Part shown: positions 1-15,688 of the stretch, in pieces
How positions within the stretch are numbered: position 1 is the first letter of the stretch
How the letters are laid out: each line of letters begins with the position of its first letter
Source of the DNA: an uncultured Spirochaetota bacterium
Lineage (GTDB): Bacteria > Spirochaetota > Spirochaetia > SZUA-6 > Fen-1364
Length of the DNA: 64,000 nt
Assembly (NCBI GenBank): GCA_963745235.1
Contig: CAVUXE010000052.1
Location: 1-64,000, forward strand
Reading direction: 5' to 3'
The notes under the pieces: model-generated
Database searches by the model: none
What the model saw: the letters and a program-made list of their open reading frames with translations, nothing else
Told to the model about the DNA's origin: nothing
Program-made: the position numbers and the translations under genes

Positions 1-822
1 CCACACCACATATCCGACGAACGATTCAGCCGGGAGGACCTCATGGCTTGTCATGTAGCGCACGAGCTGCCCCTTCGTGACCCCCATCCCGAGGGCAAAG
101 CTCATGGCGCCAAGCGCACCCCCCGCGGAACATAGTGACCTCTCCCGTGATGCAAGCTCCAGGACCGAAGAGCAGTCCATGAGGGTCAAGGCATCCACCA
201 CGTGCCGGTCATTCACATCTCTCACCCACCTCAGCGCCCCCTCACCCCGCCCGGCAGGGGAAAATCCATAGTTTGGCCCATAGTGCGTCAGGTCAGTCGA
301 CCCGACCACCGCGACCTTCTTCTCCATTCTTCCGGCGGCCGCGGCTATTTCCGCGCCGAGCCGCACGGCGCGCGGTGACGGCGGAGCGCGCAGGCCCACC
401 AGGCGCGCGCGCGGGAACAGGTACCTGGCAAAGGGGAGCTGCACTTCCACCGAGTTGTCGGGAGTCCTGTCTTCCTTGATGTCGAAGCATTCAACGAGCC
501 AGTCGCGCAGCTCTCCGTCCGCCGCCATTTCCCCGAGGGGAGTTTCAAAGGAGTCCTCCCCGCAGCACAATATTCCGTCAGAAGGTCCCAGGTGACCGCC
601 GATAATAACGATGGTATCGATGCTGCGGGAAATACATGCCATCACTTCAAGGGCGAGCATCCCTGAGAACTCCCAGCCCGCGTGCGGGACAACCCCTGCA
701 ACGGCGCCGCCGTCCCTTTTCGGCACCCTGCGCGACATCGCCAGGATTGTCTCCGTGGTGTCTTCCACCCCGGAGGGATACCATCCCGGCGGCAGGAACC
801 TTTTTCGTACGCTCTTGGACAT
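1..822 (-). CDS. MEMO1/AmmeMemoRadiSam system protein B family dioxygenase-like protein (3' end runs off the window; absent from the ORF track)
   Basis: Manual translation from ATG at 822: MSKSVRKRFLPPGWYP...GVVPHAGWEFSG...DNSVEVQLPF...VGSTDLTHYGPNYGF...SFVGY, all MEMO1 motifs. Confidence 0.85.
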   Translation of the reverse strand, partial: MSKSVRKRFLPPGWYPSGVEDTTETILAMSRRVPKRDGGAVAGVVPHAGWEFSGMLALEVMACISRSIDTIVIIGGHLGPSDGILCCGEDSFETPLGEMAADGELRDWLVECFDIKEDRTPDNSVEVQLPFARYLFPRARLVGLRAPPSPRAVRLGAEIAAAAGRMEKKVAVVGSTDLTHYGPNYGFSPAGRGEGALRWVRDVNDRHVVDALTLMDCSSVLELASRERSLCSAGGALGAMSFALGMGVTKGQLVRYMTSHEVLPAESFVGYVVW

Positions 823-860
823 GAAGTCGATTATACTCGACGTCGCATGGGGAGGGGAGC

Positions 861-1955
861 ATGAATAGACGTATTTCCTGGGCATTCCTCGGCGTGAGCG
901 TTGCTTTTTTCCTTTTCATCGTCGGGCTGACCGGATACAGATTGGAGGAAGCCCGCGCGCGAAACTCTCTCCAGGTCAGGGACAAGCTCATCGACATCGC
1001 CACCAGGATTTCTTCCATCCGCACAACGTACGTGAGCCTGGATGCTCCCGCGGTGCGCAAGGATCTCCGCGCTCTTTTCGACGCCGAGCCCCGACTGCTC
1101 CTGATGAACGTGTACTCCCCTACTGATGGCATCCTGTACCTTGTGGCGCGCAACCAGGCATACCTGAAAGAGCCGGCAACTCCCGACCTCGCGTGGCGAG
1201 GCATGCCGACCTACCAGGTGAGCCGGGGATACGAAGTTGTCCTGAGCCGGCCTCTGGATGGTGACCCGCCCGGAGCGGTCGTGGACGCGGTATTCGTCAT
1301 CATGGGCCGAGAAGACCTGTACCCGATTGTGAGGGATGACCTGTACCTGTTCCTGGCCTTTCTCTTTGTGAGCGGCGTCGTGATCCTCATTGCCATGAGC
1401 GTCCAGGAGGCGCCCGCGGTGCCGGACGGTCCATCACGCGGCCCGGTTGACTTCCGCGGTCTCACCTCCCCGCGCAGCGGCCTCCTCAGAGCGGAGCACC
1501 TGGAACCGAGGCTTCGCGCCGAGCTGGAGAAGGCCATTTCCGCCGGACAGGACATTTCCCTGGCCAGGATCCAGATCGACGAGCCCTACGCGAACTCCAA
1601 TCTGTCCGAGGCGTACACGGAGATCGCCCGGGTCCTCCTTCTGAGGTTCCCGGCGCATGATTGCCTTTTCGAGTCCGGAAACGATACGTTCACGGTCCTG
1701 ATTCCCGAAACTGACATCGATGCGGCCGTCCGAACCATCGACGCCTTCAGAAAGGCCGTGGGCAGCAGGGAGATCGAGGAAAGGGTCCGTTCGCTTTCGG
1801 CTGGCGCATCTTCCCGCGGGGCACGGCTGGTTTCAGCGTCAACCCTGCTGGAAGAGGCGGAGATAGCGCTCGCAAAGGCGTCCCGGGAAGGCGGGAACCA
1901 GGTGATCGGCTTCCGCGCCGACCCTTCCCGGTATCAGGCCCACGTCCCGGCATAG
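861..1955 (+). CDS. Membrane protein with periplasmic sensor region and degenerate C-terminal GGDEF domain
   Basis: Two hydrophobic segments; C-terminal SGLL..., ISLARIQID, GNDTF in place of GG(D/E)EF, SLSAG, EAEIALAKASREGGNQV. Confidence 0.7.
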   Translation: MNRRISWAFLGVSVAFFLFIVGLTGYRLEEARARNSLQVRDKLIDIATRISSIRTTYVSLDAPAVRKDLRALFDAEPRLLLMNVYSPTDGILYLVARNQAYLKEPATPDLAWRGMPTYQVSRGYEVVLSRPLDGDPPGAVVDAVFVIMGREDLYPIVRDDLYLFLAFLFVSGVVILIAMSVQEAPAVPDGPSRGPVDFRGLTSPRSGLLRAEHLEPRLRAELEKAISAGQDISLARIQIDEPYANSNLSEAYTEIARVLLLRFPAHDCLFESGNDTFTVLIPETDIDAAVRTIDAFRKAVGSREIEERVRSLSAGASSRGARLVSASTLLEEAEIALAKASREGGNQVIGFRADPSRYQAHVPA

Positions 1956-1996
1956 AACCGGCCCGGCGCCTGATCAGAAGCCCGCTCAGCGCCCGC

Positions 1997-2851
1997 TCAG
2001 AGCCCCAGTGATTTTCGAAGCTCGGCCACCGCATCATCCTTCATGGTGAAGGTGTGCTCGTCAGCCGGGAAGGCCTTCGACTGCACTTCGGAGACGTACT
2101 TCCTGACGGCATCCAGCTGGATGGAATATACGTCCGCGTACACCTTCACGAACTTCGGCGTAAACCGGCGGAAGAGCCCAACCATGTCGTGAAGCACCAG
2201 GACCTGGCCGTCGCATTCCAGCCCGCCCCCAATGCCGATGGTCGGGATGTCCAGCTTCTCCGTGATCAGGGCCGCCAACTGTCGGGGAATGGCCTCCAGG
2301 ACGATGGCGAAAGCGCCGGCCTCCTGCAGCGCAAGGGCGTCATCCACCACCCTCCTGGCCTGGTCAAGCGATTTGCCCTGGACCTTGAATCCCCCAAGAA
2401 GGTTCGCTGTCTGCGGAGTGAGACCGATATGGCCGAAGACCGGAATCCCGGCCTTGACAATTGCGCTCACCACGGGGGCCATATCCTGGCCGCCTTCCAG
2501 CTTCACAGAGTCCGCCCCGCCGTCCTTGTACAGCACGCCGGCATTCGCGACGGCCTGCTCCCGGGAAATGTTGTATGACATGAACGGCATGTCGCCCACC
2601 ACGTGCGCCCGCTTGACGCCCCGCATCACGGCCCGCGTATGGCCCAGCATTTCCTCCATGGTCACCGGCACGGTGTCGCGGTACCCAAGCTCCACCATGC
2701 CGAGGCTGTCACCGACCAGGATCACGTCTATTCCCGCCTCATCCACGATCAGTGCCTGGGGGTAGGAGTAGGCGGTAATCATTGTGATCTTTCGACCTTC
2801 CTTCTTCATGCCGTGCAGGTCGGGAATCATAACCTTCTTGACGTCGCTCAT
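1997..2851 (-). CDS. panB: 3-methyl-2-oxobutanoate hydroxymethyltransferase
   Basis: LVGDSLGM, GDMPFMSY, VKLEGG, GHIGLTPQ, TIGIGGG..CDGQVLV; SD GGAGG upstream of ATG at 2851. Confidence 0.95.
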   Translation of the reverse strand: MSDVKKVMIPDLHGMKKEGRKITMITAYSYPQALIVDEAGIDVILVGDSLGMVELGYRDTVPVTMEEMLGHTRAVMRGVKRAHVVGDMPFMSYNISREQAVANAGVLYKDGGADSVKLEGGQDMAPVVSAIVKAGIPVFGHIGLTPQTANLLGGFKVQGKSLDQARRVVDDALALQEAGAFAIVLEAIPRQLAALITEKLDIPTIGIGGGLECDGQVLVLHDMVGLFRRFTPKFVKVYADVYSIQLDAVRKYVSEVQSKAFPADEHTFTMKDDAVAELRKSLGL

Positions 2852-2882
2852 GGTGCTTTGGCCCTCCTGTGGTGTGCCTGCC

Positions 2883-2982
2883 AGCGTAGCGGAAAACCCG
2901 GCCCGGCACAAGCAACGCAGGCGCAATCGCTCACCGCCGGCGCGAACGCTGCGTTGACAAATCCCGTGCGCCTCTTTACCGT
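2883..2982. promoter_or_regulatory. Divergent sigma70-like promoters for panB and the P1 peptidase
   Basis: Plus strand TTGACA(2954-2959)-17 nt-TACCGT(2977-2982); minus strand TTGTGC(2911-2906)-17 nt-TACGCT(2888-2883). Confidence 0.55.
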
Positions 2983-2990
2983 GCCACACC

Positions 2991-3960
2991 ATGAGCGGCA
3001 GCATCACAGACGTCCCCGGGATCCAGGTCGGGCACGCGCAGCATCCCTCCGGCAGGCACCGGCTGCACGGTCATCCTCTGCAGGGCCGGAGCCGTCCCCG
3101 GGGTGGACTCACGCGGCGGCGCGCCAGGCACCCGGGAGACCGACTGCCTGAGGCCGGAGAACATGGTGCCTGTGGCCCATGCCATTTTTCTCACCGGGGG
3201 AAGCGCATACGGACTCGATTGCGCTGCCGGGATCATGCGCTGGCTTGAAGAGCAGAAGGTCGGCCTCGATGTGGGCGTGACCGTGGTTCCCATTGTGGCA
3301 GGGGCCGTCCTGAACGACCTTGGCTTCACGGGCGGCGCCGCGCGCCCGGATGCCGAAATGGGCTACCGCGCGTGCAAAGAGGCGAGTGCATCCGAGACCC
3401 GGCAGGGCAACGTCGGCGCGGGGACCGGGGCTGCAATCGGGAGACTGGCCGGCAACTCCAAGGGCATGGTAAAAGGCGGCCTGGGAACCGCGAGTGCCCG
3501 TTTTGGTGACGTGGTGGTCGGGGCCATTGTCGCGGTGAACTGCAACGGTGATGTCACGGACCCGGCCACGGGGGAGGTCCTTGCGGGGACACTGACGCCT
3601 GCGCGGGACGGGTTTGCCGGGGCAATGAAAATGATCAGCGGTGAAACGGCGGGCTACAAAGGGGGGTTCCCCACCAATACCACCATCGGCACCGTGGCCA
3701 CCAACGCCCGGCTCACAAAGGCCATGGCGACACGCGTGTCCATCATGGCCCATGACGGCTACGCAAGGACAATCAATCCTGTGCATACCCTGGGGGACGG
3801 GGATGTGATCTTCACTTTGGCCGCTGGCACGGTGGAGGCTGACACCGACCGCGTCGGGGCGCTTGCGGCATGGGTCATGGCGCAGGCGGTGGTGAACGCC
3901 GTGCGCGCGGCTGCGAGCCTGCTCGGCGTGCCAGCGTCCCGAGATCTGTTCCGCAAATGA
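2991..3960 (+). CDS. P1/S58 (DmpA/OAT-fold) peptidase, Thr-nucleophile ThnT-like type; one frameshift near 3057
   Basis: ITDVPGIQVGH + TGCTVIL + RGGAPGTRETD, LTGGSAYGL, GNVGAGTGA, NTTIGTVATNA, HDGYARTINPVHT.GDGD. Confidence 0.85.
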
Positions 3961-3963
3961 AGA

Positions 3964-3990
3964 GGGCGCCAAGCAAGCCGTCCGGCGCCC
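3964..3990. terminator. Putative stem-loop between convergent genes
   Basis: GGGCGCC...GGCGCCC inverted repeat; no U-tract. Confidence 0.3.
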
Positions 3991-4011
3991 ACTCCCAGTC
4001 CTCGCAGAGGA

Positions 4012-5175
4012 CTACCTGACTTCCTTCACGAGCTTCTTCTTTCCGTTCTGGATCTCGAAAATATAGGTCGGCTTGTTGGTCGGAATGCCGTCCTTCATGT
4101 CCCAGTTGAAAAGCAGGCCGTGGAAGTTCTTCACGTTCGCGCAGTAGTCCGCGATCTTCTTCCTCTCCTCAGCCAGCTTCGAGGGGTCTCCCGTCACGCC
4201 TGTCTTCTCGATGGCTTCCTTGATCATGTAGAGGGCGTCGTAGTAGTTCGGGGAGAGGCTGAAGGGGGCCAGTCCCTTGTGGTCCTTCGCGAATGCCGCC
4301 TTGAACGCGTCCCACCGGGGGTTGGAGATGTCGAGGTTGATGTAGTTGTAGACCTGCACCCCGTTCAGGTCCGCGCCGCCGGTCGAGTAGAGCTGCGCAT
4401 CATCGGCGCTGCTGAACACGAGGATGTGGTTCATCTTCTTCCAGCCCCGGCTCTTCAGCTCCTTGATGATCTTGGCGGCCTTCTCGCGCGTTGCAGACCA
4501 GGATGATCCCGTCCGGCTTCTCCTCCAGCGCCTTGACGACCAGCGGTCCGAAGGTCACCGCATCGTCCGGGACATCCACGTGGTCAGCACCTTGATGTTC
4601 AGGCCCTGCAGCGCCTTCACATGCGCCGTCGGCCATGCCGGGCCAGGGGCCGTACGGCTCGACGAACTGGACCGCCTGCTTCATGTCGGTGAACTCCTTC
4701 GCCCACGCCACCACGAGCGGCGGAAGCCTGTCCAGCGTTGGCGGGGAACCAGGAGACGGTCCAGGGGAAGAACTTCTGCGCGTACTCGAGCGAAGTCGTC
4801 GCCGTGATGGACATCATCCCGGCCTCCACCGCGATGGGCATGGCCGCCATGATGACCGGCTCGGGAACCGGGCCCATTGCGACGAGGCTGTCCTTCACGA
4901 TACGGGCCATCTCCACGGAGCCCTTCTGGGGGTCCAGTGCCGTGTCGACCGGGACCACCTTCACGGGCACGCCGGCTATCCCTCCCGAGGCGTTGATTTC
5001 CTTTGCGGCGTACTCGGCACCCCACTCCAGGAACTCTCCGAATGGCCGCAATAGGGCCGGTCAGGCAGTTGAGGAACGGTACCTGCCACTCGGTGGCTAC
5101 CACCTTCGCCTGGCCGAACCCGAAGCGTGGCTGCAAACAAAACTACGAACAATGCACACCGATCAGCTTTTTCAT
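4012..5175 (-). CDS. ABC transporter substrate-binding protein, LivK/HAAT-like; several frameshifts
   Basis: Signal-like MKKLIG..., LTGPIA, AAKEINASGGIAGVPVKVV..DT, YYDALYMIKEAIEK spread over several frames. Confidence 0.8.
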
Positions 5176-6077
5176 GGGACCTCCTTGAGTGAAATATACC
5201 GTTTCCTTCGTTTTCCCGAAAGAAAGGTTTCGATTGAGCGGACGAACCGCGGGGTGACGAACCCCTCCGGCTTCAGAACGAGCACCAGGATCAGGAGAGC
5301 GCCGTAGATCACTATCCGCCACGACTGGATCTCCGGCGGGAACAGGAGCGGCGCCCCGTACAGGATGGGCGCGGTGACGACCGTGCCCCACTGCGTTGCA
5401 TATCCGCCGACGAAAATGACGATCATGAAAAAACCGACAAGAGCGAAGGGGAAGTAGTCGAGGTGGAAGCTCTTGTAGATGAAGCCGTAGAGCACGCCGC
5501 TGCCGCCGGCAATCGTGCAACTGGCCGTCTGCACCAGCATCCCCAGCCTCTTGCGGTTGATGCCCAGGGAGGCGGCAAGATCCGGGTCCACGAACACGGT
5601 GGACGCCGCCCTCCCCAGCCGGGAATGATCGAAGCGATTGATGAGCCAGCCGACGATCAGGACGAGCGCGTAGAGAATGACCAGGAGGATGAGGCGGTGC
5701 GATGTCGGGCTGCCGCCGATGTTCGGCAGGCCAAACATCCCCATTGTCCCTCCCACGGCGGGCAGGTTCTGGATGACGGTGCGGGTGATGAATATGAAGG
5801 TGAAGCCGACGATGACCACGGCGAATGTCGGTGCATCCCCGATGAACAGGGAGACCCCGTAGCCGATGAGGCCTCCCAGGAGGAAACCTATTGCCAGCGC
5901 CCAGCCAAAAGGAACGTGGAGGCTCATCACGAGATATCCGGCCGTGTAGCCGGAGATAGCCATGTTTGCGACGGTGAGGAAATGCAGGTGCGCCACGCGG
6001 TACGGCAGGTAAAGGGCCCAGCTCATGAGGATGTTCACGGCCGTAATGGAGAGGTAGTAGTACAACGGAAGCGGCAC
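5172..6077 (-). CDS. Branched-chain amino acid-type ABC permease (LivM-like)
   Basis: C-terminal part of ORF 5172..7325; SD AGGAGG then GTG at 6077; multi-TM, SRLGRAA..AASLGIN, VLKPEG. Confidence 0.85.
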   Translation of the reverse strand: MPLPLYYYLSITAVNILMSWALYLPYRVAHLHFLTVANMAISGYTAGYLVMSLHVPFGWALAIGFLLGGLIGYGVSLFIGDAPTFAVVIVGFTFIFITRTVIQNLPAVGGTMGMFGLPNIGGSPTSHRLILLVILYALVLIVGWLINRFDHSRLGRAASTVFVDPDLAASLGINRKRLGMLVQTASCTIAGGSGVLYGFIYKSFHLDYFPFALVGFFMIVIFVGGYATQWGTVVTAPILYGAPLLFPPEIQSWRIVIYGALLILVLVLKPEGFVTPRFVRSIETFLSGKRRKRYISLKEVP

Positions 6078-6088
6078 CTTCGTCCCTC

Positions 6089-6973
6089 CTAGACACTGGA
6101 CCCGAACAGTCCCCGCGGCTTCACCAGGATCACGACCAGCATGATGACGAACGCAATGGCATTCGACCAGGTGCCGGAGATGTATCCCTGCACGATGGCC
6201 TCCAGGACGCCCAGGACGAGCCCGACGACAAGCCCTCCCGCCAGGTTCCCCAGCCCCGCGATGATTGACACGGCAAGCACCTTGTGGGCGACCTGCTCTC
6301 CCAGCCCCGGCGATGCCGAGCCAAGGACCATCGCCAGGAGCACGGCTATGACGCCCCCGAGGACGCCCGAAAGGGCATAGCTTGCAAAAGCGGTGCGCAG
6401 CAGGGGGATCCCCACCAGGCGGGCGCCGTTGGGGTCCTCCGCAATGGCGCGGAAGGCGCGCCCGGGCCGCGTCTTGTACAGGATGAAGAAGATGGCGGAG
6501 ACCGCGACAATCCCCACGGCCAGAGACCAGACCTGGCCGCCAAGGACGCTGATGAGGCCTACCCTGATCAGGGGTGTCTCCCCGGACAGCTGATCCGGGA
6601 AGGCGATGGGGAGCCCCCTGTTGAAGGTGTGAGACAGCACGTCGGTGATGATCATCCCGATGCCCAGGGAAAGCACCATGGTGCTGTTGATGTCGACCTC
6701 TCCCCTCTTCATCATCACCTTCTGGAACAGCGGGGCGGAGAGGAGGTTCAAGGCGACCGAAGAGGCCACTCCCGCGGCGATCCCGAGGGCCAGGTTGTTC
6801 CCCGTGAGCTGGAGCACGACCCAGGTGATGTACATGGAAAAGACGACAACCTGGGGATAGGAGAAGTGGATGATCATGGCGACGAGCAGGAGAAGGTTGA
6901 AGCCCGTCACGAGCAGGACGTAGATGCTTCCAAGGGAGAGCCCGTTGATGATCTGGGCGATCAGTTCCTGCAC
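6089..6973 (-). CDS. Branched-chain amino acid-type ABC permease (LivH-like)
   Basis: QIINGLSLGSIY, KTRPGRAFRAIAED..ARLVGI, KPRGLFG. Confidence 0.9.
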   Translation of the reverse strand: MQELIAQIINGLSLGSIYVLLVTGFNLLLLVAMIIHFSYPQVVVFSMYITWVVLQLTGNNLALGIAAGVASSVALNLLSAPLFQKVMMKRGEVDINSTMVLSLGIGMIITDVLSHTFNRGLPIAFPDQLSGETPLIRVGLISVLGGQVWSLAVGIVAVSAIFFILYKTRPGRAFRAIAEDPNGARLVGIPLLRTAFASYALSGVLGGVIAVLLAMVLGSASPGLGEQVAHKVLAVSIIAGLGNLAGGLVVGLVLGVLEAIVQGYISGTWSNAIAFVIMLVVILVKPRGLFGSSV

Positions 6974-6976
6974 GTC

Positions 6977-7699
6977 TTACGCTCCGAGATAGGCTTCCCG
7001 GACACCGGGATCGGAGAGAAGCCGTTCCGCGGTTCCGGTCAGCGCAATTGTCCCTGTTTCCAGGACATACCCGCGATGTGCGCACCGCAGCGCCTTGTTC
7101 GCGTTCTGCTCGGAGAGGAGGATAGTGTACCCCTCCCCGTTCAGCTTTTTCAGTATCGAAAAAATCTCGCTCACGATGAGGGGCGCCAGTCCGATTGACG
7201 GCTCGTCCACCATGATCAGCCGCGGGGCCGACATCAGCGCCCTGCCGATGGCAAGCATCTGGCGCTCCCCCCCGCTCAACGTCCTTGCGATCTGGTTCTT
7301 CCGCTCCGCCAGAATAGGGAACCACGCGAATACCCGGCGCAGGCTCGCCTGGACGTTGCGCATGTTGTTGTGTGCTCCCAGGAGCAGGTTGTCCAGCACA
7401 TTCATGGAGGCGAACACTCCCCGCCCTTCGGGGACCAGGCAGATGCCTGCCCGTACGTTGCGGTCGGCGGCCACGCCGCCGATTTCCCTTCCTTCGAAGA
7501 CAATACTCCCCGAGCGCGGCGTGTTGATTCCAAGCACGGATTCCAGGAGGGTCGTCTTGCCGGCCCCGTTGGCGCCAATGAGCACGACGATCTCCCCCGC
7601 AAACACCTCCAGGCTGGCATCCTTGAGGGCGTTCACGTGCCCGTAGGAGACGGAAAGGTGCTCCACCTTGAGGAGGGGACCGCGCGTCTCAGTCGACAC
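6977..7699 (-). CDS. ABC ATP-binding protein (LivF-like)
   Basis: GANGAGKT, VPEGRGVF, LSGGERQMLAIGRALM, DEPS. Confidence 0.92.
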   Translation of the reverse strand: MSTETRGPLLKVEHLSVSYGHVNALKDASLEVFAGEIVVLIGANGAGKTTLLESVLGINTPRSGSIVFEGREIGGVAADRNVRAGICLVPEGRGVFASMNVLDNLLLGAHNNMRNVQASLRRVFAWFPILAERKNQIARTLSGGERQMLAIGRALMSAPRLIMVDEPSIGLAPLIVSEIFSILKKLNGEGYTILLSEQNANKALRCAHRGYVLETGTIALTGTAERLLSDPGVREAYLGA

Positions 7700-8489
7700 C
7701 GAGGTATGCCTCAAGAACACGCTGGTCCTTCTGGACCTGTGAAGGAGACCCTTCGGCGATCTTTTCCCCGAAATTGAGGACCGTCACGCGATCCGACAGG
7801 TTCATGAGCATCTTCACGTCGTGGCTCACGACCACCACGGTGACTCCGGACTCCCGGACCTTCCGGATGATCTCTTCCACCCTCTCCATCTCACGCACGC
7901 CCATCCCGGAGGCCGGCTCGTCAAGAAGGAGGACACTCGGCCCGGCAACGACGGCGCGCGCTATCTGGACGAGCTGCCGTTCTGTCCACGCGAGGTCGCT
8001 CGCCCATCGCTCCGCGGCTGCTTCGATGCCGGTGAGGACGAGCGCCCTGCGGGCGCTTTCCTCGATCTCGGTTTCCCTGCGCGAGTGCAGGAACGGCAGA
8101 CGCAGCATGACGTCCGCGGCGGATCTCCCCACGGGGTCGTTGATTCCCGCCATGACATTCTCCAGGACCGAGAGGCCGGCAACGATTTTTCCGGCCTGGA
8201 AAGTGCGTCTGATTCCGAGATTCGCTATTGCGTCAGGACGCTGCGCCGTGATGTCGAGCGAGTCCAGATGCACGGAGCCGGCGTCCGGCCTGAGGAGCCC
8301 GGTGACGCAGTTGAAGAGCGTGGTCTTTCCTGAACCGTTGGGTCCGATGATGCCATGGATGTGGCCCTTCTGGACCTGGATATCCACCCGCTCGAGGGCC
8401 TTGATTGCACCGAAGGACTTGCTGAGCGCTGCGACACGGAGGATGCAGTGGTCCATGGGTGGGTGGGAGTGTAGGTGATTGGGATTCAT
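7689..8489 (-). CDS. ABC ATP-binding protein (LivG-like)
   Basis: GPNGSGKT, RTFQ, LLLDEPASG, VLEAYLG. Confidence 0.9.
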   Translation of the reverse strand: MNPNHLHSHPPMDHCILRVAALSKSFGAIKALERVDIQVQKGHIHGIIGPNGSGKTTLFNCVTGLLRPDAGSVHLDSLDITAQRPDAIANLGIRRTFQAGKIVAGLSVLENVMAGINDPVGRSAADVMLRLPFLHSRRETEIEESARRALVLTGIEAAAERWASDLAWTERQLVQIARAVVAGPSVLLLDEPASGMGVREMERVEEIIRKVRESGVTVVVVSHDVKMLMNLSDRVTVLNFGEKIAEGSPSQVQKDQRVLEAYLGVD

Positions 8490-9728
8490 GTGTCAACGCG
8501 AACCGCCCTCAGGAAGCGCGAGGAGGCCACGGCGTACACCCGGGCGCATTCCACCAGCTGGTCGATATCCACGTACTCGTCCACCTGGTGAGGGATGTGC
8601 CGCGGACCGGGACCGTTGACGAGGCAGGGGATCTTCTTCCACGCGCTGAGAAAAGTGCCGTCGGTCGCTCCCGGGACCCCGTTCCATACCGGCTCCCGGC
8701 CCGTGACCTCCCGGAAAGCCTCCGCGGATACGCTGGCAATTGGTTCATCCCGGGAGATGCCGACAACCGGCCTGTCTTCGATGAACTCGATTTCTGCCTT
8801 GAAGTCCCGGTCTTTCGCCGCAAGCTCCGTCAGGAGCGCGCGCAGGCGTTCGCGAAGCGCGTCATGGGACTGCATGAGCGTGGTGCGGATGTCCACGTAC
8901 CCCACCGCTTCCCCCGGCATCACGTTCAGCTGCGCGGGGCTGCCGGCGGGCGGAGACTGGAGCACCGTGAAAGTGATGGAGGGAAGCCCAATGAGGGGAT
9001 CTGCGCCGCAGCGTTTCTTCTCCTCCGCCTCCAGCTGCTCGAATGCAAGGATGATACGGGCGAGGCGGGTGTTCGGATTGACGCCGGTCAGCGGCATGGC
9101 GCCGTGGGCCATTCTGCCGTGAACACGGACCACCGCGCGGATGGCGCCCTTCATGGTGATGCAGAGATTGTTCTCCTCCGGCTCGGGTACCAGGCACGCG
9201 GTGACATCGTCCGCGTGACCCGACGCTATGAAGTGCTTGATGCCGATCATCATGCCTTCCTCATCGCAGGGAAAACCGAGCCGAACCTTCCCCGTCCAGG
9301 CTGCCGGGAAGCTTCCCCAGGGCCTTGGCCGTGACAAGCGCCACCGCGAGCCCCGCCTTCATGTCGCAGGACCCGCGCCCGTAGATCCTCCCGTCAGCAA
9401 CATCGGCTCCGAACGGGTCATGGGTCCACGCGGCCCTGTTCCCTTCGCTCACCACGTCGGTATGCCCCTCCAGCATCAGGCAAGGCCCGCGCACGCCGGA
9501 GTCCAACGTGGCAATGACGTTTTGCCTCCCCGTCTCCACTTCCTGGACAAGAGGCTCGATCCGCAGCTCTCGGCGGATCCAGTCTGCGATGAAGCGCACG
9601 ACGTTCCGTTCCGTCCCATTCGATTCCGGGCGGATCACGGAGTCGATGCGCACGAGGTCCCGGGTCAGGCTGACCAGCTCCTCCCGGTCGACACCCGTCA
9701 GCAATTCCCGCTCGAGCTCTGAGATCAT
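8486..9728 (-). CDS. M20 (ArgE/DapE-family) metallo-amidohydrolase; frameshift near 9300-9330
   Basis: EGHTDVV, GRGSCDMKAG, CDEEG, AHGAMP..GVN, PHQVDEY across ORFs 9261..9728 and 8486..9337. Confidence 0.88.
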
Positions 9729-10661
9729 TCGCCGGGTCCCCTCGTGTGAATGCGGTCAAGCGTCTTCACCAGGCGCGCTATTGTCGCGTTCACCGGGGTG
9801 GGAACGCCGAGGGCCGCCGCTTCCTTCACAATGGCGCCATTCATGAAATCGATTTCCGATTCCCGTTTCCTGTCGAAGTCCTGGAGCATGGAGGAACGGT
9901 TTGCTCCGGTCTTTCCGGCCACCTCATAGACCGTGGCCAGGGGGTCCGCGTACGTGAATGCCACCCCGCGCGCCCGAGCAACGGCAACCGCCTCCTGCAC
10001 GAGGTCCGCCATGACGGCCTTCGTTTCCTCATGCCGCAGGAGCTCCCCGTTGGTCCGTCCAATGAGCGCCGTGAGGGCGTTGATGCCGACGTTGATCACG
10101 AGCTTGCTCCACACGAGGCCGGCGACATCCTCCTCTACGTGCGTCTCGAACCCCGCCTCGGTGAGGGCATCCGCCAGGGCGGAAAGCCTGCGGTTCTCCC
10201 CGTTTGCCATGCTGATATGGGTCGGGCCTTTGCCCGCGTGGCGTATCCGGCCGGGTCCCAGGAATGTGGCGCCCTGTGACGTGACCCCCGCGGCGGTGCG
10301 ATCAGCGCCGAAATGCCTGCGAATGATTGCCTCGTTCCCCAGCCCATTCTGCAGCGTGAGCACGATGGTCTGCGGACCGGCAAGATCTTTGAACCGGATT
10401 GCGGCCTCCTCTGTCGCCGTGGACTTGACGAAAACGACAAAGACATCCGATCCCGCCACTGACTGCGGCTCCGCGCTTGCATCCGGGATGCGCGGTGACT
10501 GAGCTCCCCGTTGCGGCATCCTCGATGACAAGGCCATCACGCAAGACTTTCTCAACGTGCTCACGGTAGACGTCGAACAGAACGACGTCGTGACCGGCAA
10601 GGGAGAGCCTGCCTCCGTACAGCGAGCCCATGGCTCCAGACCCGATAATCGAGATTCTCAT
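9725..10661 (-). CDS. panE: 2-dehydropantoate 2-reductase; frameshift near 10490
   Basis: IIGSGAMGSLYG, VFVKS, LTLQNGLGN, WSKLVINVGINALTA, NRSSMLQD, EIDFMNG. Confidence 0.92.
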
Positions 10662-10735
10662 CGGGGAAAGATTAGTGTTTGGCGGAGGGATGGTCCAGAG
10701 CCGGGGCGGCCTTCATAGGCAGCGCGGCTCGACGC

Positions 10736-11662
10736 TCAGTCCTCCAGCGGCATTTCGATGTGCTGGAGGTCCCGGGTGAGGAAGGAGGCGGGAAAGATCT
10801 CGCGCGCTTCCTGCAGCAGCTTCTTCAGCTCCCGTTCGGAATAGCGAGGGCTGTAGTGAATCAAGCCCATCTCCTTGACGCCGGCCTCGCGGGCTATGCG
10901 CGCCGCCTGCGCCGCAGTGAGATGCTTCTTCTCCGCCGCCGTCTCCGCCAGCTCGTCGGCAAACATGCCCTCACAGATGAGTAGGTCCGCCCCGCTCACA
11001 AACCCGGCCAGTCCGGAAGCGGCAATCGTATCTGTGACAAAGCAGAACTTGCGGCCCTTCCTCTCCTGTCCCATGACCTGGGCGGGGGTCACCATCGTTC
11101 CGTCCGGCAACCCGATAGTCTCACCGCCCTGGAGGCGTGACCAGAGCGGACCGCGCGGGACCCCCAGGGCCAGTGCCTTGTCCGGAAAAAAGATGCCGGG
11201 GCGCTTCTTCTCCTCGATGCAGTATCCCAGGCACTGCTTGGTGTGCTGCAAGGGGAACGAGCGGATGCCGTATTCCTCCGCGTCGAAGACATTGCACTTC
11301 CCCTCGATCTCCTTCACCACGATCTCGTAATTGATGTACATGTCGAGGGTGCGCCGCATGGCCTCCACGAACTCGCGTATCTTCGGGGGGCCGTAAATGT
11401 ACAGGGGCTCATCCCTGTCGACCTGGGATGAAAGCATGAGGATCCCCGGGAGCCCCGTCACGTGATCCGCGTGCGTGTGAGATATGAATATCGAGGTGAT
11501 CTTCTTCCAGCGCAGGTTCAGCCTGCGCAGTCCTATCTGCGTGCCTTCCCCGCAGTCAAAAAGAAAAAGCTCGCCCTCCCTCCGCACAAGGACCGACGTC
11601 AGTCCCCTGCCGGGGAGGGGCATCATCCCGCCCGTTCCGAGAACGAATACTTCGAGATTCAT
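10736..11662 (-). CDS. rnz: Ribonuclease Z
   Basis: LGTGGMMP, FDCGEGTQ, HTHADH, GVPRGP exosite, HLT, HYSPRY. Confidence 0.95.
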   Translation of the reverse strand: MNLEVFVLGTGGMMPLPGRGLTSVLVRREGELFLFDCGEGTQIGLRRLNLRWKKITSIFISHTHADHVTGLPGILMLSSQVDRDEPLYIYGPPKIREFVEAMRRTLDMYINYEIVVKEIEGKCNVFDAEEYGIRSFPLQHTKQCLGYCIEEKKRPGIFFPDKALALGVPRGPLWSRLQGGETIGLPDGTMVTPAQVMGQERKGRKFCFVTDTIAASGLAGFVSGADLLICEGMFADELAETAAEKKHLTAAQAARIAREAGVKEMGLIHYSPRYSERELKKLLQEAREIFPASFLTRDLQHIEMPLED

Positions 11663-11671
11663 GATGCGCCT

Positions 11672-14636
11672 TTATTCCGGAAGATCTATCGACCTGTCGC
11701 CAAGCTCAGGGATGGCGACTTTTGCCTCGCTCAGGGATGCGCGGTTTGCAATCACCGACGTGAAGCCCTTGTCGAACTCCCTCGCAAGCCCCCGTGCGGC
11801 TTCCACCACCTCCGCCCTGTGCGTGGCAATGAGCCGGGCGCGGCGCTCCTGACGCATCCTGTCGGTCACCCCGTGCAGCCTTCGCTGCAGGCTGACGAAG
11901 CCCTTCTCTCCGGCGTCCAGGGGCCTGTCTTCCCGGCCAACGGTCCCGATCACCGCCTTTTCCACTTCGTCCTCGTTCAGCGCCGCGCTGGAAAGGTAGG
12001 CGAGCCCCTCCCGGAACTTCGAGAGGGTGCTGACGATATGCGGGTCTCTGTAGGAGCCGAAGAGAAAGAGGCCCTCCATGTTGCGCGGGAAGGAGAACGC
12101 GCCATACGCGCCTCCTTCCATGCGCACCTTCTCCCAGAGGAAGCCCGTAGAGAGCAGATGCCCCAGGACGGCGGCGGGTCCGTTGTCCGGGTGCTCGTAG
12201 CGGAAGCCCGGTATTGCGCGGGCGACGTATCCGACGGATGCGCTGGAAAGGAGAGATTCAGCCCGCGGGAGGCCGTTTCCCCCCGCCACGGATGCACCCG
12301 TTTCTGACGCGGCGCTTGAACCGCGGGGGAGGACCTGCGAGATGACATGCACCGCCTGGGCTGCTTCGGCGAAAGTCTCCCGGACCGCCGTGGCGTTGGC
12401 GAGCATATTCACTTGCGTAAGGAGCTCCTTCCTGATGGATTCGAGATTCTCTGCGATCCAGGGAAGGCGCCCATCCAGGTCCCTGGTGAGCCCTTCGAGA
12501 AAGAGCAGCTGGGTGATGCCCTTCCATTCCTCCTCCCGGGCAACGGATGGCGACAGCATGCTTGCCGCGCGCAGCATTGCGAACTGGTGGCCCCCCGGAA
12601 CGAGCGAAGCCCTCATGCCGTTGCGCAGCTCCAGCACGAGGTCGCGCAGGCGGGGCAGATCCCGGAAATCCGCCTCGGAGAGCAGGGACGCGATGAGCGC
12701 AGACGCCTCCGCAAGGTTCTTCCGCAGGCAGCGCGTTCGAAAAAACGCGTGCTGCCCGAAGGACTGCGGCTTGCCCACGATCCCGCCAGCATCCAGGGAA
12801 GCGGAGAACCCTCCCGTCAGGCGGAAAAGGTCAAGCGCCACCTTGTCGTAGCTTCTGCCCGGCAGCCCGCATCCGCAAACCGCTTTGCCGAAAAGGGGAA
12901 GGAGAAGCGTTCTCTCCCCGATGACGCCCTCCGTTCGAAATACGAGATCTATATACACCACTTCGTTTGTGAAGATGTCATGCAGTGACAGGGGGATGCC
13001 GGAGGCGGTGGCCGTCTCCTCCGCCGGGATGACCTCGATTTCCCGAGGCAGATCCCCGCGTTTCAGGGAGGGCAGAAGCGCAAGGGCCTCGGGAGAGTCC
13101 GGCGTCATCTGGTAAGTTCGAAAATCCTTTGCGTCCGCCAGGAGGCGCGCCCGTTGATCCGGAGTCAGCCGCCGCACGGCATCTGCCACCAGGGCCTTCT
13201 CCGAGGCCGTCTCCTGCTGCTCCTGGTCCTTGTCGGGCCGCACAACGAGTGTCACGCGGTGGGGATTGGACACGAGCCCCGTCTGGATGATGTCCTGCAG
13301 CAGGCGCGGGTCCCGGGACATTCGGGACTTCATCCCCTCAAACGCCGAATCGAACTCCAGCGAGGCCAGAGGGTCGATGCCATGCACCCACCCCCGCAAC
13401 GCTCTTCCCATGAGACGAAGCGCGTAAGGAGAGCCGTTTCCACGGATCTCCCGATGACGGAACTCAACCCTGTTCATCATCGACTCAACGAGCTGGCGCT
13501 CCAGCCCGCGCGAGGCAAGCGTCCCCAGCGTCTCGAAAACCAGGGCGCTCACCTGTTCCGCCCGGTCCGGCTCCGTGCCCCGCAACCCAGCTGCAAAGAC
13601 GAGCTCCTTGAGGTCCGTTTCCAGCCCGCTGACCGGGGAAAGGTCCTGGCCGAGCCCCGAGTCTACAAGGGCCTTCCGCAGGGGGGAACCTGCGCTGCCA
13701 ATCAGGACCTCGGAAAGGATTTCGTGCGCCAGGATGGTCTGGGGATCGGAGCCGCCGGGAAGGAGCCAGCTCAGCGTCACGCTGGAGCGCCCTGAAAGCG
13801 GTGTGTCAGGCTTGACCGGGAACGTTTTCTCCAGCCTCCGAGGCTCCTTCCAGCGGGGCTGAAGCTGTATCGACGACTCGATGGTCTGCGCGGTGAATCC
13901 CGACAGGAACCTGTCGTGAAGGACACGCAGGGTCTCCTCCGCGGGGATGTTGCCGTAGAGAAAAATGCGGCAGTTGGAAGGATGGTAATACCGCGCGTGG
14001 AAGCTGCGCGCCTGCTCCAGGGTCAGGGACGGCAGGAACCGGGGGTCACCGCCGGAGTCGAACCGGTAAGGGGTGTCCGGGAACAAGGACCGAAATGCCC
14101 ATTCCCCGACAATCGATTCGGGGCTCGAATACGCCCCTTTCATCTCGTTGTAGACGATTCCCGCGTAACGAAGCTCATCCTCCCTGCCGTTCACCGGCTC
14201 CAGCCGCCAACCCTCCTGCATGAAGGTTTCCTTGCGCAGGAGGGGATGGAATACCGCGTCACCGTAGACCTCCAGGAGGTTGAAGAAGTCCGTCCGGTTG
14301 CAGCTGGCCGCCGGGTACACGGTACGGTCGGGATAGGTCAAGGCGTTGAGGAACGTATGCATGCTCCCCTTCATGAGCGCGGAGAAGGGCTCTTTCAGGG
14401 GAAAGCGGCGTGAGCCGCTCAGCACGGAATGCTCGGTGATATGGGAGACGCCCGTGTCATCCTGGGGCGGAGTTGCAAAGCAGAATGCGAACAGGTTCTC
14501 CGTTGTCGGCGGCGGTGATATGCAGGACCTCGCAGCCCGTGGCCGCGTGCCGCACGTGCAGCGCGCTGGAGCGGTACTCGGGGAGATCCCGGCGTGCCAG
14601 CACCTGGAAGGCGCCGATCGAAGCGGGGGTAGTCAT
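11672..14636 (-). CDS. M16C insulinase-family (presequence protease-like) metallopeptidase; frameshift near 14500
   Basis: Upstream frame gives MTTPASIG...; TGVSHITEHSVL (HXXEH), FLNALTYPDRT, YNEMKG, VRMEGGAYG, SYRDP. Confidence 0.9.
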
Positions 14637-14699
14637 GGTTGTACCAATATACGAACCGGCCAGCGCCGTGTCTATTCTTCCTCGTGCTATACTCGCGCC

Positions 14700-15688
14700 G
14701 TGACGGATGCCGGCCTGAGGGGACGCCTGGAGAGCCACGCCCGCTTCGCGAGCGAGATACGGGGATATTTCACCGCACGCGGCTACGTGGAGGTCGAAAC
14801 GCCCACGCTGTCGCCTTTCCTCATCCCGGAACCCGCCATCGAGGTGTTCCAGACCGAGTACCTCGGGCCGGGCGGGCACCCGCGCGACCTCTGGCTCATC
14901 CCTTCCCCCGAGCTGTGGATGAAGCGCCTCCTGGGACGCGGGAGCGGCAACATCTTCCAGATCAGCCGCAGCTTCAGGAATGGAGACGTCGGAAGCCCCC
15001 TTCACAATCCGGAGTTCCGTCTCCTGGAATGGTACACCGTGGGGAGCGGCTACGTCGAATCAATCGACGTGCTGGAAGGCCTGTTCTCACACCTCCTGTC
15101 GTCAGGGTGGGAAAAGCGCCACCCGGCAGCTCTCCCCGCCCTTTCACCGCTTGACCATGAATGAGGCGTTCCAGCGTTACGCCGGCATCGACCTCGCAGG
15201 CTGCCAGGACGTGGAAGACCTGGTGAGAGCGGCCCGGCGCCGCGGCGTTCGCATGCCGGAGGAGAGCACCTGGGAGGAGGCCTTTCACATCGCTTTTCTC
15301 ACATCCGTGGAGCCCGCGCTGCCGCGGGATGCTCCGCTCGTGCTCCTCGATTACCCTTCCCTCGTGCCGACAACGGCGCGGCGCGCGGCGGCGGGTCCGT
15401 GGGCGGAGCGGTGGGAGCTGTTCGTGGACGGGGTGGAGATCGCCAACTGCTATACGGAGGAAACCGACACGGAGGCCCTGACCGCGCTGCTTCGCGAGGA
15501 AGGAGAAAGGAAAAAGGCTTCCCGCGTCCAGCACGCAGTTGACGACGGCCTGGCCGCCGCGTTTCCGCGGGGCTTCCCGACGGTGAGCGGGAGCGGCACT
15601 CGGTGTTGATCGACTGGAGATGGTATTCTCCGGAGAAAAATCCCTCGAGGGGGTGATTTTATTTCCGTTTTCGGATATAGTGCCTTGA
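14700..15688 (+). CDS. epmA: EF-P beta-lysyl ligase EpmA/GenX; two frameshifts (~15130, ~15590)
   Basis: EVETPTL, SPELWMKRLL, FRNGD..HNPEFRLLEWY, ERWELF..G.EIANCY.E, ALGVDRL; no anticodon-binding domain; adjacent to efp. Confidence 0.85.

Follow-up and report, generated by a model that had tools for sequence, protein, structure and literature searches.

Pantothenase and the three activities that follow it in the degradation of pantothenate have reportedly been known since the 1960s. In 1966 the Snell laboratory is said to have described, in Pseudomonas, a route that leads from pantothenate via pantoate, aldopantoate and 3,3-dimethylmalate to 2-ketoisovalerate. The enzymes of this route are pantothenase (EC 3.5.1.22), pantoate 4-dehydrogenase, aldopantoate dehydrogenase and dimethylmalate dehydrogenase. 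In the part of the literature that we searched, no gene assignment was found for pantothenase or for any of the next three enzymes, and a 2023 paper refers, in its passages on the topic, to the pantothenase protein as unknown. Upstream of this route, the relevant passages of a 2026 review name ThnT as the only known microbial pantetheine hydrolase. Here, we describe a gene cluster on a stretch of 64,000 nucleotides from an uncultured Spirochaetota bacterium (GenBank assembly GCA_963745235.1, contig CAVUXE010000052.1, positions 1 to 64,000 of the forward strand; hereafter, the window). The corresponding genome is a metagenome-assembled genome (MAG) of 104 contigs, some longer than 300 kb, with a completeness of 85.7%. 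The cluster combines panB and panE with two putative amide hydrolases and an ATP-binding cassette (ABC) importer. We consider it rather probable that it encodes an import-and-dismantling pathway for pantetheine and/or pantothenate, in which PanE and PanB run in reverse, in an anaerobe that is unable to build either compound.

Gene content of the cluster

The genes were mapped from the listing of open reading frames (ORFs), Pfam scans and tblastn with the intact orthologues of a relative, genome G006 (locus L017):

1997–2869, minus strand: panB, ketopantoate hydroxymethyltransferase; PF02548, 381.9 bits, profile positions 1–258 of 259; frame intact
2991–3960, plus strand: P1/S58 hydrolase, predicted self-cleaving Thr-nucleophile enzyme of the ThnT/NylC branch; PF03576, 1.6e-36
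4012–5175, minus strand: HAAT-family substrate-binding protein (Peripla_BP_6); Pfam fragments, four tblastn pieces in three frames against the intact G006 orthologue of 385 amino acids
5172–6077, minus strand: LivM-type permease; BPD_transp_2, 89.7% identity to the G006 orthologue in the same single frame
6089–6973, minus strand: LivH-type permease; PF02653, 8.4e-30, 91.5% identity to the G006 orthologue
6977–7720, minus strand: LivF-type ABC ATPase; PF00005 and BCA_ABC_TP_C
7689–8489, minus strand: LivG-type ABC ATPase; PF00005 and BCA_ABC_TP_C
8486–9728, minus strand: M20 metallohydrolase of the ArgE/DapE type; Peptidase_M20 and M20_dimer, in two frames
9725–10661, minus strand: PanE/ApbA, 2-dehydropantoate 2-reductase; ApbA and ApbA_C, in two frames

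The S58 gene is convergent with the importer-M20-PanE genes and divergent from panB. The start of panB is uncertain, as its ORF extends to 3007 while similarity begins near 2869. All genes named in the initial annotation, which was made from the window alone, are thus present in the order and on the strands given there. PanB and PanE are bona fide members of their families by model score: the G006 PanB orthologue, 92% identical to that of the window, scores 329.2 with TIGR00222 (cut-off 207.55), and the G006 PanE orthologue scores 276 with TIGR00745 (cut-off 141.35). The best PDB matches of PanE are ketopantoate reductases, including the enzyme of Thermococcus kodakarensis. The importer carries the full set of HAAT features, i.e., a pair of permeases with BPD_transp_2 domains, a pair of ATPases that carry the C-terminal BCA motif, and a single Peripla_BP_6 binding protein, the orthologue of which has a signal peptide.

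Conservation of the gene set

Conservation was assessed in a sample of 41 genomes of one order, in which close kin do not count as independent observations; f1 denotes the family of the window organism. An S58 homologue is present in 27 of the 41 genomes (own genome counted) and in 21 of the 24 f1 genomes (own genome excluded). The loci of 15 relatives were fetched for neighbourhood comparison. Eleven of them carry the full set of panB, S58, binding protein, LivMHFG, M20 and PanE in identical order, and in a twelfth (G024) only panB is missing at that place. Two loci from family f8 comprise S58-PanE-M20 in the same direction, and one from f7 has S58 alone. In f8 the set is split, with all parts retained, into S58-PanE-M20 and LivGFHM-panB; in the f8 genome G038 the latter is a LivG-LivF-LivH-LivM-panB operon at a separate site, with panB as its last gene. 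The complete cluster is also found, at about 70% protein identity, in MAGs named Rectinemataceae bacterium, uncultured Treponema sp. and Spirochaetes bacterium (L086, L091 and L101), the PanBs of which form one clade with the window PanB (support 100/100). We tentatively place the window organism among the Spirochaetota of anoxic peat or soil. Rearranged forms occur in other families and phyla. The association of panB, panE, M20, P1 hydrolase and HAAT importer that had been noticed in a single window therefore recurs widely, and the retention of the same parts in different arrangements argues for a functional unit. Judged from these comparisons, the arrangement is more than chance.

Within this conserved frame, some variation was observed. 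At the same genomic position in one genus, the S58 gene has two very different forms: one (L016–L020, L029 and L030) is 72–84% identical to the window S58 and has N-T-T at the cleavage site, and the other (L021, L022, L023, L024 and L028) is 52–57% identical with S-T-T or H-S-T at that site. The flanking panB and binding-protein genes are up to 94–96% identical despite this difference (e.g., in G015), a pattern that looks like gene replacement in place. Loci L018 and L021 have about 900 bp extra between PanE and RNase Z. In L030, L091 and L131, two tandem binding-protein genes lie in the cluster, which may reflect a broader range of imported substrates.

Pantothenate and coenzyme A genes in the lineage

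The initial annotation had remarked on the lack of panC and panD in the window. Neither gene was found anywhere in the 85.7%-complete genome. No pantoate-consuming ligase that could use the product of PanB and PanE, either PanC or the archaeal phosphopantothenate synthetase (PPS), was found in this genome. The archaeal route via pantoate kinase and PPS was considered for the window organism and set aside on the same absence, PPS also being found in 0 of 24 f1 genomes. The distribution over the families is as follows:

f1 (n = 24, own genome excluded): M20 23, panB 23, S58 21, PanC 0, archaeal PPS 0, CoaB 0
f2: M20 0, panB 0 of 3, archaeal PPS present, CoaB present
f5: M20 0, panB 3 of 3, archaeal PPS present, CoaB present
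f7: M20 0, PanC present, CoaB present
f8: M20 2 of 2, panB 2 of 2, S58 2 of 2, PanC 0, archaeal PPS 0, CoaB 1 of 2

Families with PanC or PPS thus have CoaB and lack M20, and panB is present in all 27 M20-positive genomes among the 41. The only f1 genome without M20 (G023; 96% complete, four contigs) is also devoid of panB and S58. Nor was panC found in two further genomes, the Anaerolineae MAG L059 and the Spirochaetes MAG L101, in which clusters with panB and panE lie beside M20 and S58.

Three genomes of the genus, including that of the window organism, contain CoaX, CoaD and CoaE, while CoaB and CoaC were not found in them. In the window genome these genes are located at C44:87736–88377 (CoaX), C48:37672–38130 (CoaD) and C58:161644–162105 (CoaE). 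On this gene inventory, pantoate, beta-alanine and pantothenate have no known route to coenzyme A (CoA) in the lineage. Without PanC, PPS, CoaB and CoaC, the lineage must take up pantetheine or 4'-phosphopantetheine. Retention of the type-III kinase CoaX without CoaBC suggests that CoaX phosphorylates pantetheine, a compound outside the textbook specificity of type-III pantothenate kinases. Since CoaX, CoaD and CoaE are present and PanC, PPS, CoaB and CoaC are missing, the importer probably feeds CoA synthesis with pantetheine as well. The lineage nevertheless still holds PanE and PanB (often in two copies) next to two amidases and an importer.

The second panB is conserved in the genus, at C53:266223–266982 in the window genome (frame-broken, as is much of this assembly), on C17 of G006 (L113, 7884–8795) and on C2 of G017 (L114). 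It is far from the cluster copy on the PanB tree, with long branches, and no neighbourhood conserved beyond close species was found for it. In a separate observation, PPS is present in 6 of the 41 genomes (three of three in f2 and three of three in f5: G028, G025, G032, G035, G039 and G040), always with CoaB and never with PanC. An operon in the f5 genome G028 (C2; L197, 6082–10539) encodes a GHMP kinase, a PPS_PS phosphopantothenate synthetase, PanB and a pyridoxal phosphate-dependent decarboxylase; for some neighbours in L197–L249, the names come solely from tblastn similarity to previously annotated proteins. The GHMP kinase is a candidate pantoate kinase. By gene content, some bacterial relatives thus carry an archaeal-type route to 4'-phosphopantothenate.

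The S58 hydrolase

A profile built from 11 S58 homologues was searched against the PDB sequences. It matched the mined nylon hydrolase 9CXR (2e-90), 9YYS (1e-77), ThnT (2e-70, nearly full length) and NylC (about 1e-41), and it did not match DmpA or BapA; on these matches, the enzyme belongs to the ThnT/NylC branch and not to the DmpA/BapA branch. The N-T-T motif to which the initial annotation drew attention is present in the window S58 and aligns with the self-cleavage site of ThnT. It is kept in 8 of the 11 aligned homologues, where self-cleavage is predicted to place Thr as the N-terminal nucleophile. No signal peptide is visible in the S58 orthologues.

The neighbourhoods of the closest S58 homologues were surveyed in 80 loci, with one genome per species; 78 of these were used for immediate neighbours, as the S58 ORF had been missed in two. 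The 139 immediate neighbours include ECF S-components (n = 15), AI-2E-type transporters (n = 11), BirA-type ligases (n = 5), CoaC domains (n = 3), CoaB domains (n = 2), PanG (DUF2520; n = 3), M20 (n = 3) and PanE (n = 2). Within 10 kb, panB occurs in 9 of the 80 loci, M20 in 9 and panE in 6, and the loci further comprise class-III transaminase (n = 6), panG (n = 4) and panC (n = 3). The AI-2E-type transporters were considered as PanS and rejected, because PanS is presented as a BASS-family protein in the consulted part of the source. Taken together, the neighbourhoods tie this S58 subfamily to pantothenate and CoA metabolism in anabolic and catabolic settings alike, as expected of an enzyme that would convert pantetheine to pantothenate.

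The M20 hydrolase and its oxidative relatives in Bacilli

The only model whose cut-off the G006 M20 orthologue exceeds, and that slightly, is the generic ArgE/DapE model TIGR01910 (225.1 versus 217.6); a DapE-like protein is the top match in the PDB (3e-43). Across five genomes from three phyla, the M20 next to S58 is the top match (386–704 bits, 45–73% identity), the next-best M20 in the same genomes reaching at most 128 bits. On these scores, it is one sharp orthologous group across three phyla. Positions H99, D132, E166/E167 and H390, which we take to be metal-ligand and general-base positions, show no variation among seven orthologues.

A scan of metagenome contigs with an alignment of this M20 yielded 80 loci at 43–100% identity. 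Its neighbours were panE (n = 28), S58 (n = 23), a LivH-type permease (n = 19), panB (n = 18), a short-chain dehydrogenase/reductase (SDR; n = 11), ECF parts (n = 10), Iso_dh (n = 7), a Bacilli-type aldehyde dehydrogenase (n = 6) and a class-III transaminase (n = 5). The gene orders include panB-panE-M20, S58-panB-M20-panE, S58-panE-M20 and panB/S58-panE-M20/HAAT. A further order, transaminase-panE-panB/GntR/S58-ECF-M20-S58, is seen both in metagenome loci and in the Anaerolineae MAG L059. In Spirochaetota, formate-tetrahydrofolate ligase directly adjoins panB in L101 and L086, panE is followed by a class-III transaminase in both and also by a CoA-acylating aldehyde dehydrogenase in L086, and panB of G029 adjoins the alpha subunit of a 2-oxoacid:ferredoxin oxidoreductase. 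These accessory genes fit a role in the disposal of the products of the proposed pathway.

Among 301 evenly sampled Bacilli genomes, 29 contain an M20 orthologue (E ≤ 1e-90). Stretches of 20 kb around the gene were analyzed in 20 of these, with neighbours called at 40% or more identity to reference proteins. Several gene orders occur. Within 10 kb of M20, SDR is present in 18 of the 20 loci, aldehyde dehydrogenase in 17, Iso_dh and S58 in 13 each and ECF parts in 12. For instance, Brevibacillus borstelensis (L076) has, in this order, a sigma-54 activator, an Iso_dh-family dehydrogenase, an aldehyde dehydrogenase, an SDR, ECF A/A'/T/S, S58 and M20, whereas the genes of Rummeliibacillus pycnus (L109) run from M20 via Iso_dh, SDR, aldehyde dehydrogenase and a pair of Opp-type ATPases to S58. 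The Iso_dh proteins score above the cut-off of TIGR02089, the equivalog model for tartrate/D-malate decarboxylating dehydrogenase. An amide hydrolase, an alcohol and an aldehyde dehydrogenase and a beta-decarboxylating hydroxy-acid dehydrogenase are reportedly the four enzyme classes of the Pseudomonas route. Three Bacillota with this oxidative variant carry panC. The window cluster contains no SDR, aldehyde dehydrogenase or D-malate-type dehydrogenase, the best matches in its own genome being on other contigs at 35–44% identity; it is a different variant from the oxidative cluster of Bacilli. Upstream of the ECF-S58-M20 genes of Brevibacillus sp. TJ4 (L084, 3806–5505) and in L076 (188–877), a carbon-nitrogen hydrolase of the nitrilase superfamily, presumably the fold family of the animal pantetheinases, was observed together with GNAT acetyltransferases; these proteins may act on cysteamine or related amines.

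Proposed pathway

According to the proposed pathway, the HAAT-type importer, whose binding protein is proposed to have pantetheine or pantothenate as its ligand, would take up pantetheine and/or pantothenate. The cytoplasmic S58 would then split pantetheine into pantothenate and cysteamine, and M20 would hydrolyze pantothenate to pantoate and beta-alanine, which would make it the long-sought pantothenase. PanE in reverse would oxidize pantoate to ketopantoate at the expense of NAD(P)+, and PanB in reverse would transfer the hydroxymethyl group of ketopantoate to tetrahydrofolate (THF), yielding 2-ketoisovalerate and 5,10-methylene-THF. The PanB reaction is reversible. The consulted passages of PMC4814558 contain no statement on this point. 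ATP and reductant could be gained from the products via the one-carbon (C1) branch of folate metabolism (formyl-THF and formate-THF ligase) and via 2-oxoacid:ferredoxin oxidoreductase and isobutyryl-CoA. Beta-alanine, or possibly cysteamine, would be handled by the transaminase and the acylating aldehyde dehydrogenase where these are present. This is the route of import, two hydrolyses and reversed PanE and PanB steps that the initial annotation had put forward, and it holds as the reading that best fits the genomic context, from which all its support is drawn. The other option raised there, in which CoA synthesis would draw on beta-alanine or pantothenate released by the hydrolases, is disfavoured in this organism, as neither product has a known onward route without PanC or PPS and CoaBC.

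A number of observations weigh against the proposed pathway. Ketopantoate reductase has its equilibrium far towards pantoate, so that oxidation needs a pull from later steps. An organism that is auxotrophic for pantetheine would have the hydrolase and CoA synthesis competing for this compound, and the pathway leaves the fate of cysteamine unexplained. No ligand-specific signal can be read from the sequence of the binding protein, which has only distant LivJ-like or urea-type PDB relatives and gave only generic clusters in the Atlas. The link of S58 to pan genes is not catabolic by itself: four loci of Chloroflexota show the plainly biosynthetic order S58-PanG-panB, with panC next wherever the contig extends far enough. 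Of the 80 metagenomic M20 loci, 24 lack any gene of the panel (14 of them on contigs shorter than 5 kb), and the 59 neighbours in these panel-free loci share no common theme, the commonest family being PurH (n = 4). In the window genome, the orthologues of formate-THF ligase and 2-oxoacid:ferredoxin oxidoreductase are on other contigs. The context of the second panB is uninformative, as it adjoins a divergent IclR-type regulator in G006 and has a different neighbourhood in G017. Finally, a dedicated clade of catabolic PanBs was looked for and not found on a tree of 36 out of 50 PanB rows (the 14 omitted loci were short or were duplicates from the same genomes). Association with M20 needs four changes on this tree, at least three of them on well-supported branches, and the M20-linked PanBs fall into at least three lineages instead of one clade, although the long branches make the deep joins unsafe.

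Alternative explanations

One possibility is that the cluster serves salvage only. The importer and S58 would then deliver a CoA precursor, either pantetheine for CoaX, CoaD and CoaE or pantothenate, and PanB, PanE and M20 would be biosynthetic, with a pantoate-beta-alanine ligase yet to be identified, or unrelated. The genus must indeed import a CoA precursor, S58-PanG-panB-panC operons exist, and the ECF S-components (15 of the 139 immediate neighbours), BirA-type ligases (5), CoaC (3), CoaB (2) and PanG (3) beside S58 would suit such a role. Yet pantoate and pantothenate would have no known onward route in f1, which lacks PanC, PPS, CoaB and CoaC. Moreover, no gene is as closely linked to panE and panB as M20, the orthologues of M20 are found in operons that are necessarily degradative given their decarboxylating dehydrogenase, and S58, M20 and panB are jointly lost in G023. 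Salvage alone is therefore an unlikely explanation.

Equally, the substrate may be different, for example another N-acyl amino acid, a beta-amino amide or a small peptide, with PanE as a general 2-hydroxyacid dehydrogenase and PanB acting on another 2-oxoacid. The branched-chain amino-acid type of the importer, with no ligand-specific signal, and the best scores of M20 on generic ArgE/DapE models agree with this, as do the nylon-oligomer hydrolases of unknown natural role among the nearest solved relatives of S58. In G038, the genes after the S58-PanE-M20 trio likewise encode a GntR regulator, an HpcH/HpaI aldolase and an ABC system of the peptide type. On the other hand, PanB exceeds the cut-off of an equivalog-level model, and PanBs from no fewer than three lineages recur with M20 in many gene orders. 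In addition, the SDR, aldehyde dehydrogenase and D-malate-type dehydrogenase of Bacilli suit pantoate, as a 2,4-dihydroxy acid, and are difficult to reconcile with ordinary amino-acid derivatives. We regard a different substrate as improbable.

A third explanation is that the amidases work in the direction of synthesis or transfer, taking the place of PanC and CoaB in an ATP-independent assembly of pantetheine from pantoate, beta-alanine and cysteamine, pulled by CoaX. Two amide-forming steps are missing in f1, two amidases lie beside PanB and PanE, and CoaX is kept without CoaBC; furthermore, the DmpA/OAT fold includes acyl transferases. However, amide synthesis from a free acid and an amine is, by general chemistry, strongly uphill, the cluster contains no activating enzyme, and the M20 orthologues of Bacilli are located in decarboxylating, hence degradative, operons of panC-bearing genomes. 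This makes synthesis by the amidases very improbable.

Integrity of the frame-broken genes

Four genes of the cluster are frame-broken in the window: S58 near 3055, M20 near 9304, PanE near 10485 and the binding-protein gene in at least three places, amounting to six or more breaks within 8.7 kb. Short-read contigs from four public runs of four studies, which are soil and peat metagenomes according to the run records, were aligned to the stretch. The one-base insertions at 3055, which separates the first 21 codons of S58 from the remainder, and at 10485 are missing in all four runs, and that near 9304 is missing in three of the four. In the binding-protein gene, indel sites were seen in the runs at 4486, 4745/4749, 5040, 5122, 5147 and 5155. 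The frame jumps coincide with each site of a missing base. Because the extra bases are missing from contigs of independent runs, the breaks stem from bases wrongly inserted in this assembly, and the natural genes are unbroken; the reading of these genes as pseudogenes was rejected on this ground. A decaying or accidental neighbourhood, with pseudogenes and a panB that is adjacent by chance, would account for the six or more breaks in 8.7 kb, but it is scarcely credible given the four independent runs, the intact orthologues in relatives and the retention of the gene set across families and phyla.

Compared with the short-read contigs of the four studies, this stretch has about one single-base insertion per 1–1.5 kb. 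The same fragmentation is seen in relatives with few contigs and low completeness (G008, G013, G018 and G021), and such insertions will depress gene calls and completeness estimates for the window genome and for relatives of this kind. As to the surroundings of the cluster, RNase Z and an M16 peptidase are the next genes on the minus strand beyond PanE, and a GGDEF-like gene lies upstream of panB. No Rfam match was found in positions 1–15000 of the window at E up to 0.1, and promoter-like and terminator-like sites in the window show no excess over the shuffled expectation.

Significance and comparison with known systems

Looking beyond the window, we give about even chances to a joint reading in which a widespread catabolic system, consisting of a ThnT-like pantetheinase and an M20 pantothenase, has two interchangeable back ends: the classical oxidative one, with SDR, aldehyde dehydrogenase and D-malate-type dehydrogenase, in aerobic Bacilli and a reversed PanE/PanB one in anaerobes. 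The anaerobes would be Spirochaetota and some Chloroflexota, which would conserve the hydroxymethyl group as methylene-THF. As part of the same joint reading, the f1 organisms would be pantetheine auxotrophs that both depend on and feed on the cofactor fragment via a single importer.

The cluster and its relatives offer candidate genes for pantothenase, for the next three enzymes of the classical pathway and for a pantetheine hydrolase. Such candidates exist in cultivable Brevibacillus and Rummeliibacillus in addition to uncultured anaerobes, which makes the assignments directly testable. If true, the anaerobic variant would clearly exemplify how enzymes of vitamin biosynthesis can be recruited for catabolism. 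Annotation pipelines that take panB and panE as the mark of vitamin B5 prototrophy would then predict it too often. The proposed activities also have a bearing on the cross-feeding of vitamins and cofactors, on the recycling of necromass in soils and peat, and on how well pantothenamide-type antimicrobials withstand bacterial amidases. Within the literature searched, which is a part of the whole, PanE and PanB as a putative catabolic back end in PanC-less organisms are not described, and no gene cluster of this form was encountered, in agreement with the initial annotation. Linking the classical pathway to genes in Bacilli likewise appears to be new.

Five known systems are closest to the cluster. 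The first is panBCDE biosynthesis, with which it has genuine PanB and PanE in common; here, these enzymes are coupled to hydrolases and an importer, no panC or panD was found in the genome, and the proposed flux is opposite. The NylC and nylon-oligomer hydrolases (PDB 3AXG and 9CXR) are the nearest solved sequence relatives of the window S58 and share with it the self-processing Thr-nucleophile family. They have been studied on synthetic polyamides, whereas the context of the window S58 points to pantetheine. Vanin (VNN1) of animals catalyzes the same reaction that is proposed for S58, from pantetheine to pantothenate and cysteamine. It presumably has a nitrilase-superfamily fold unrelated to S58, and it is an extracellular host enzyme, whereas the window S58 would be a cytoplasmic bacterial Ntn-type hydrolase. 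ThnT, from the thienamycin cluster of Streptomyces cattleya (PDB 3S3U and 3TM1), shares the fold family and branch of the window S58, and the same reaction is proposed for both. It is about 100 residues longer and acts in antibiotic biosynthesis, whereas the window S58 is encoded among genes of primary metabolism, together with an importer and pan genes. Lastly, the classical oxidative degradation in Pseudomonas has the first step and the end product, 2-ketoisovalerate, that are proposed for the window cluster. In contrast to that route, the window cluster would use PanE and PanB in reverse, involve no oxygen-linked steps and capture the C1 unit on folate.

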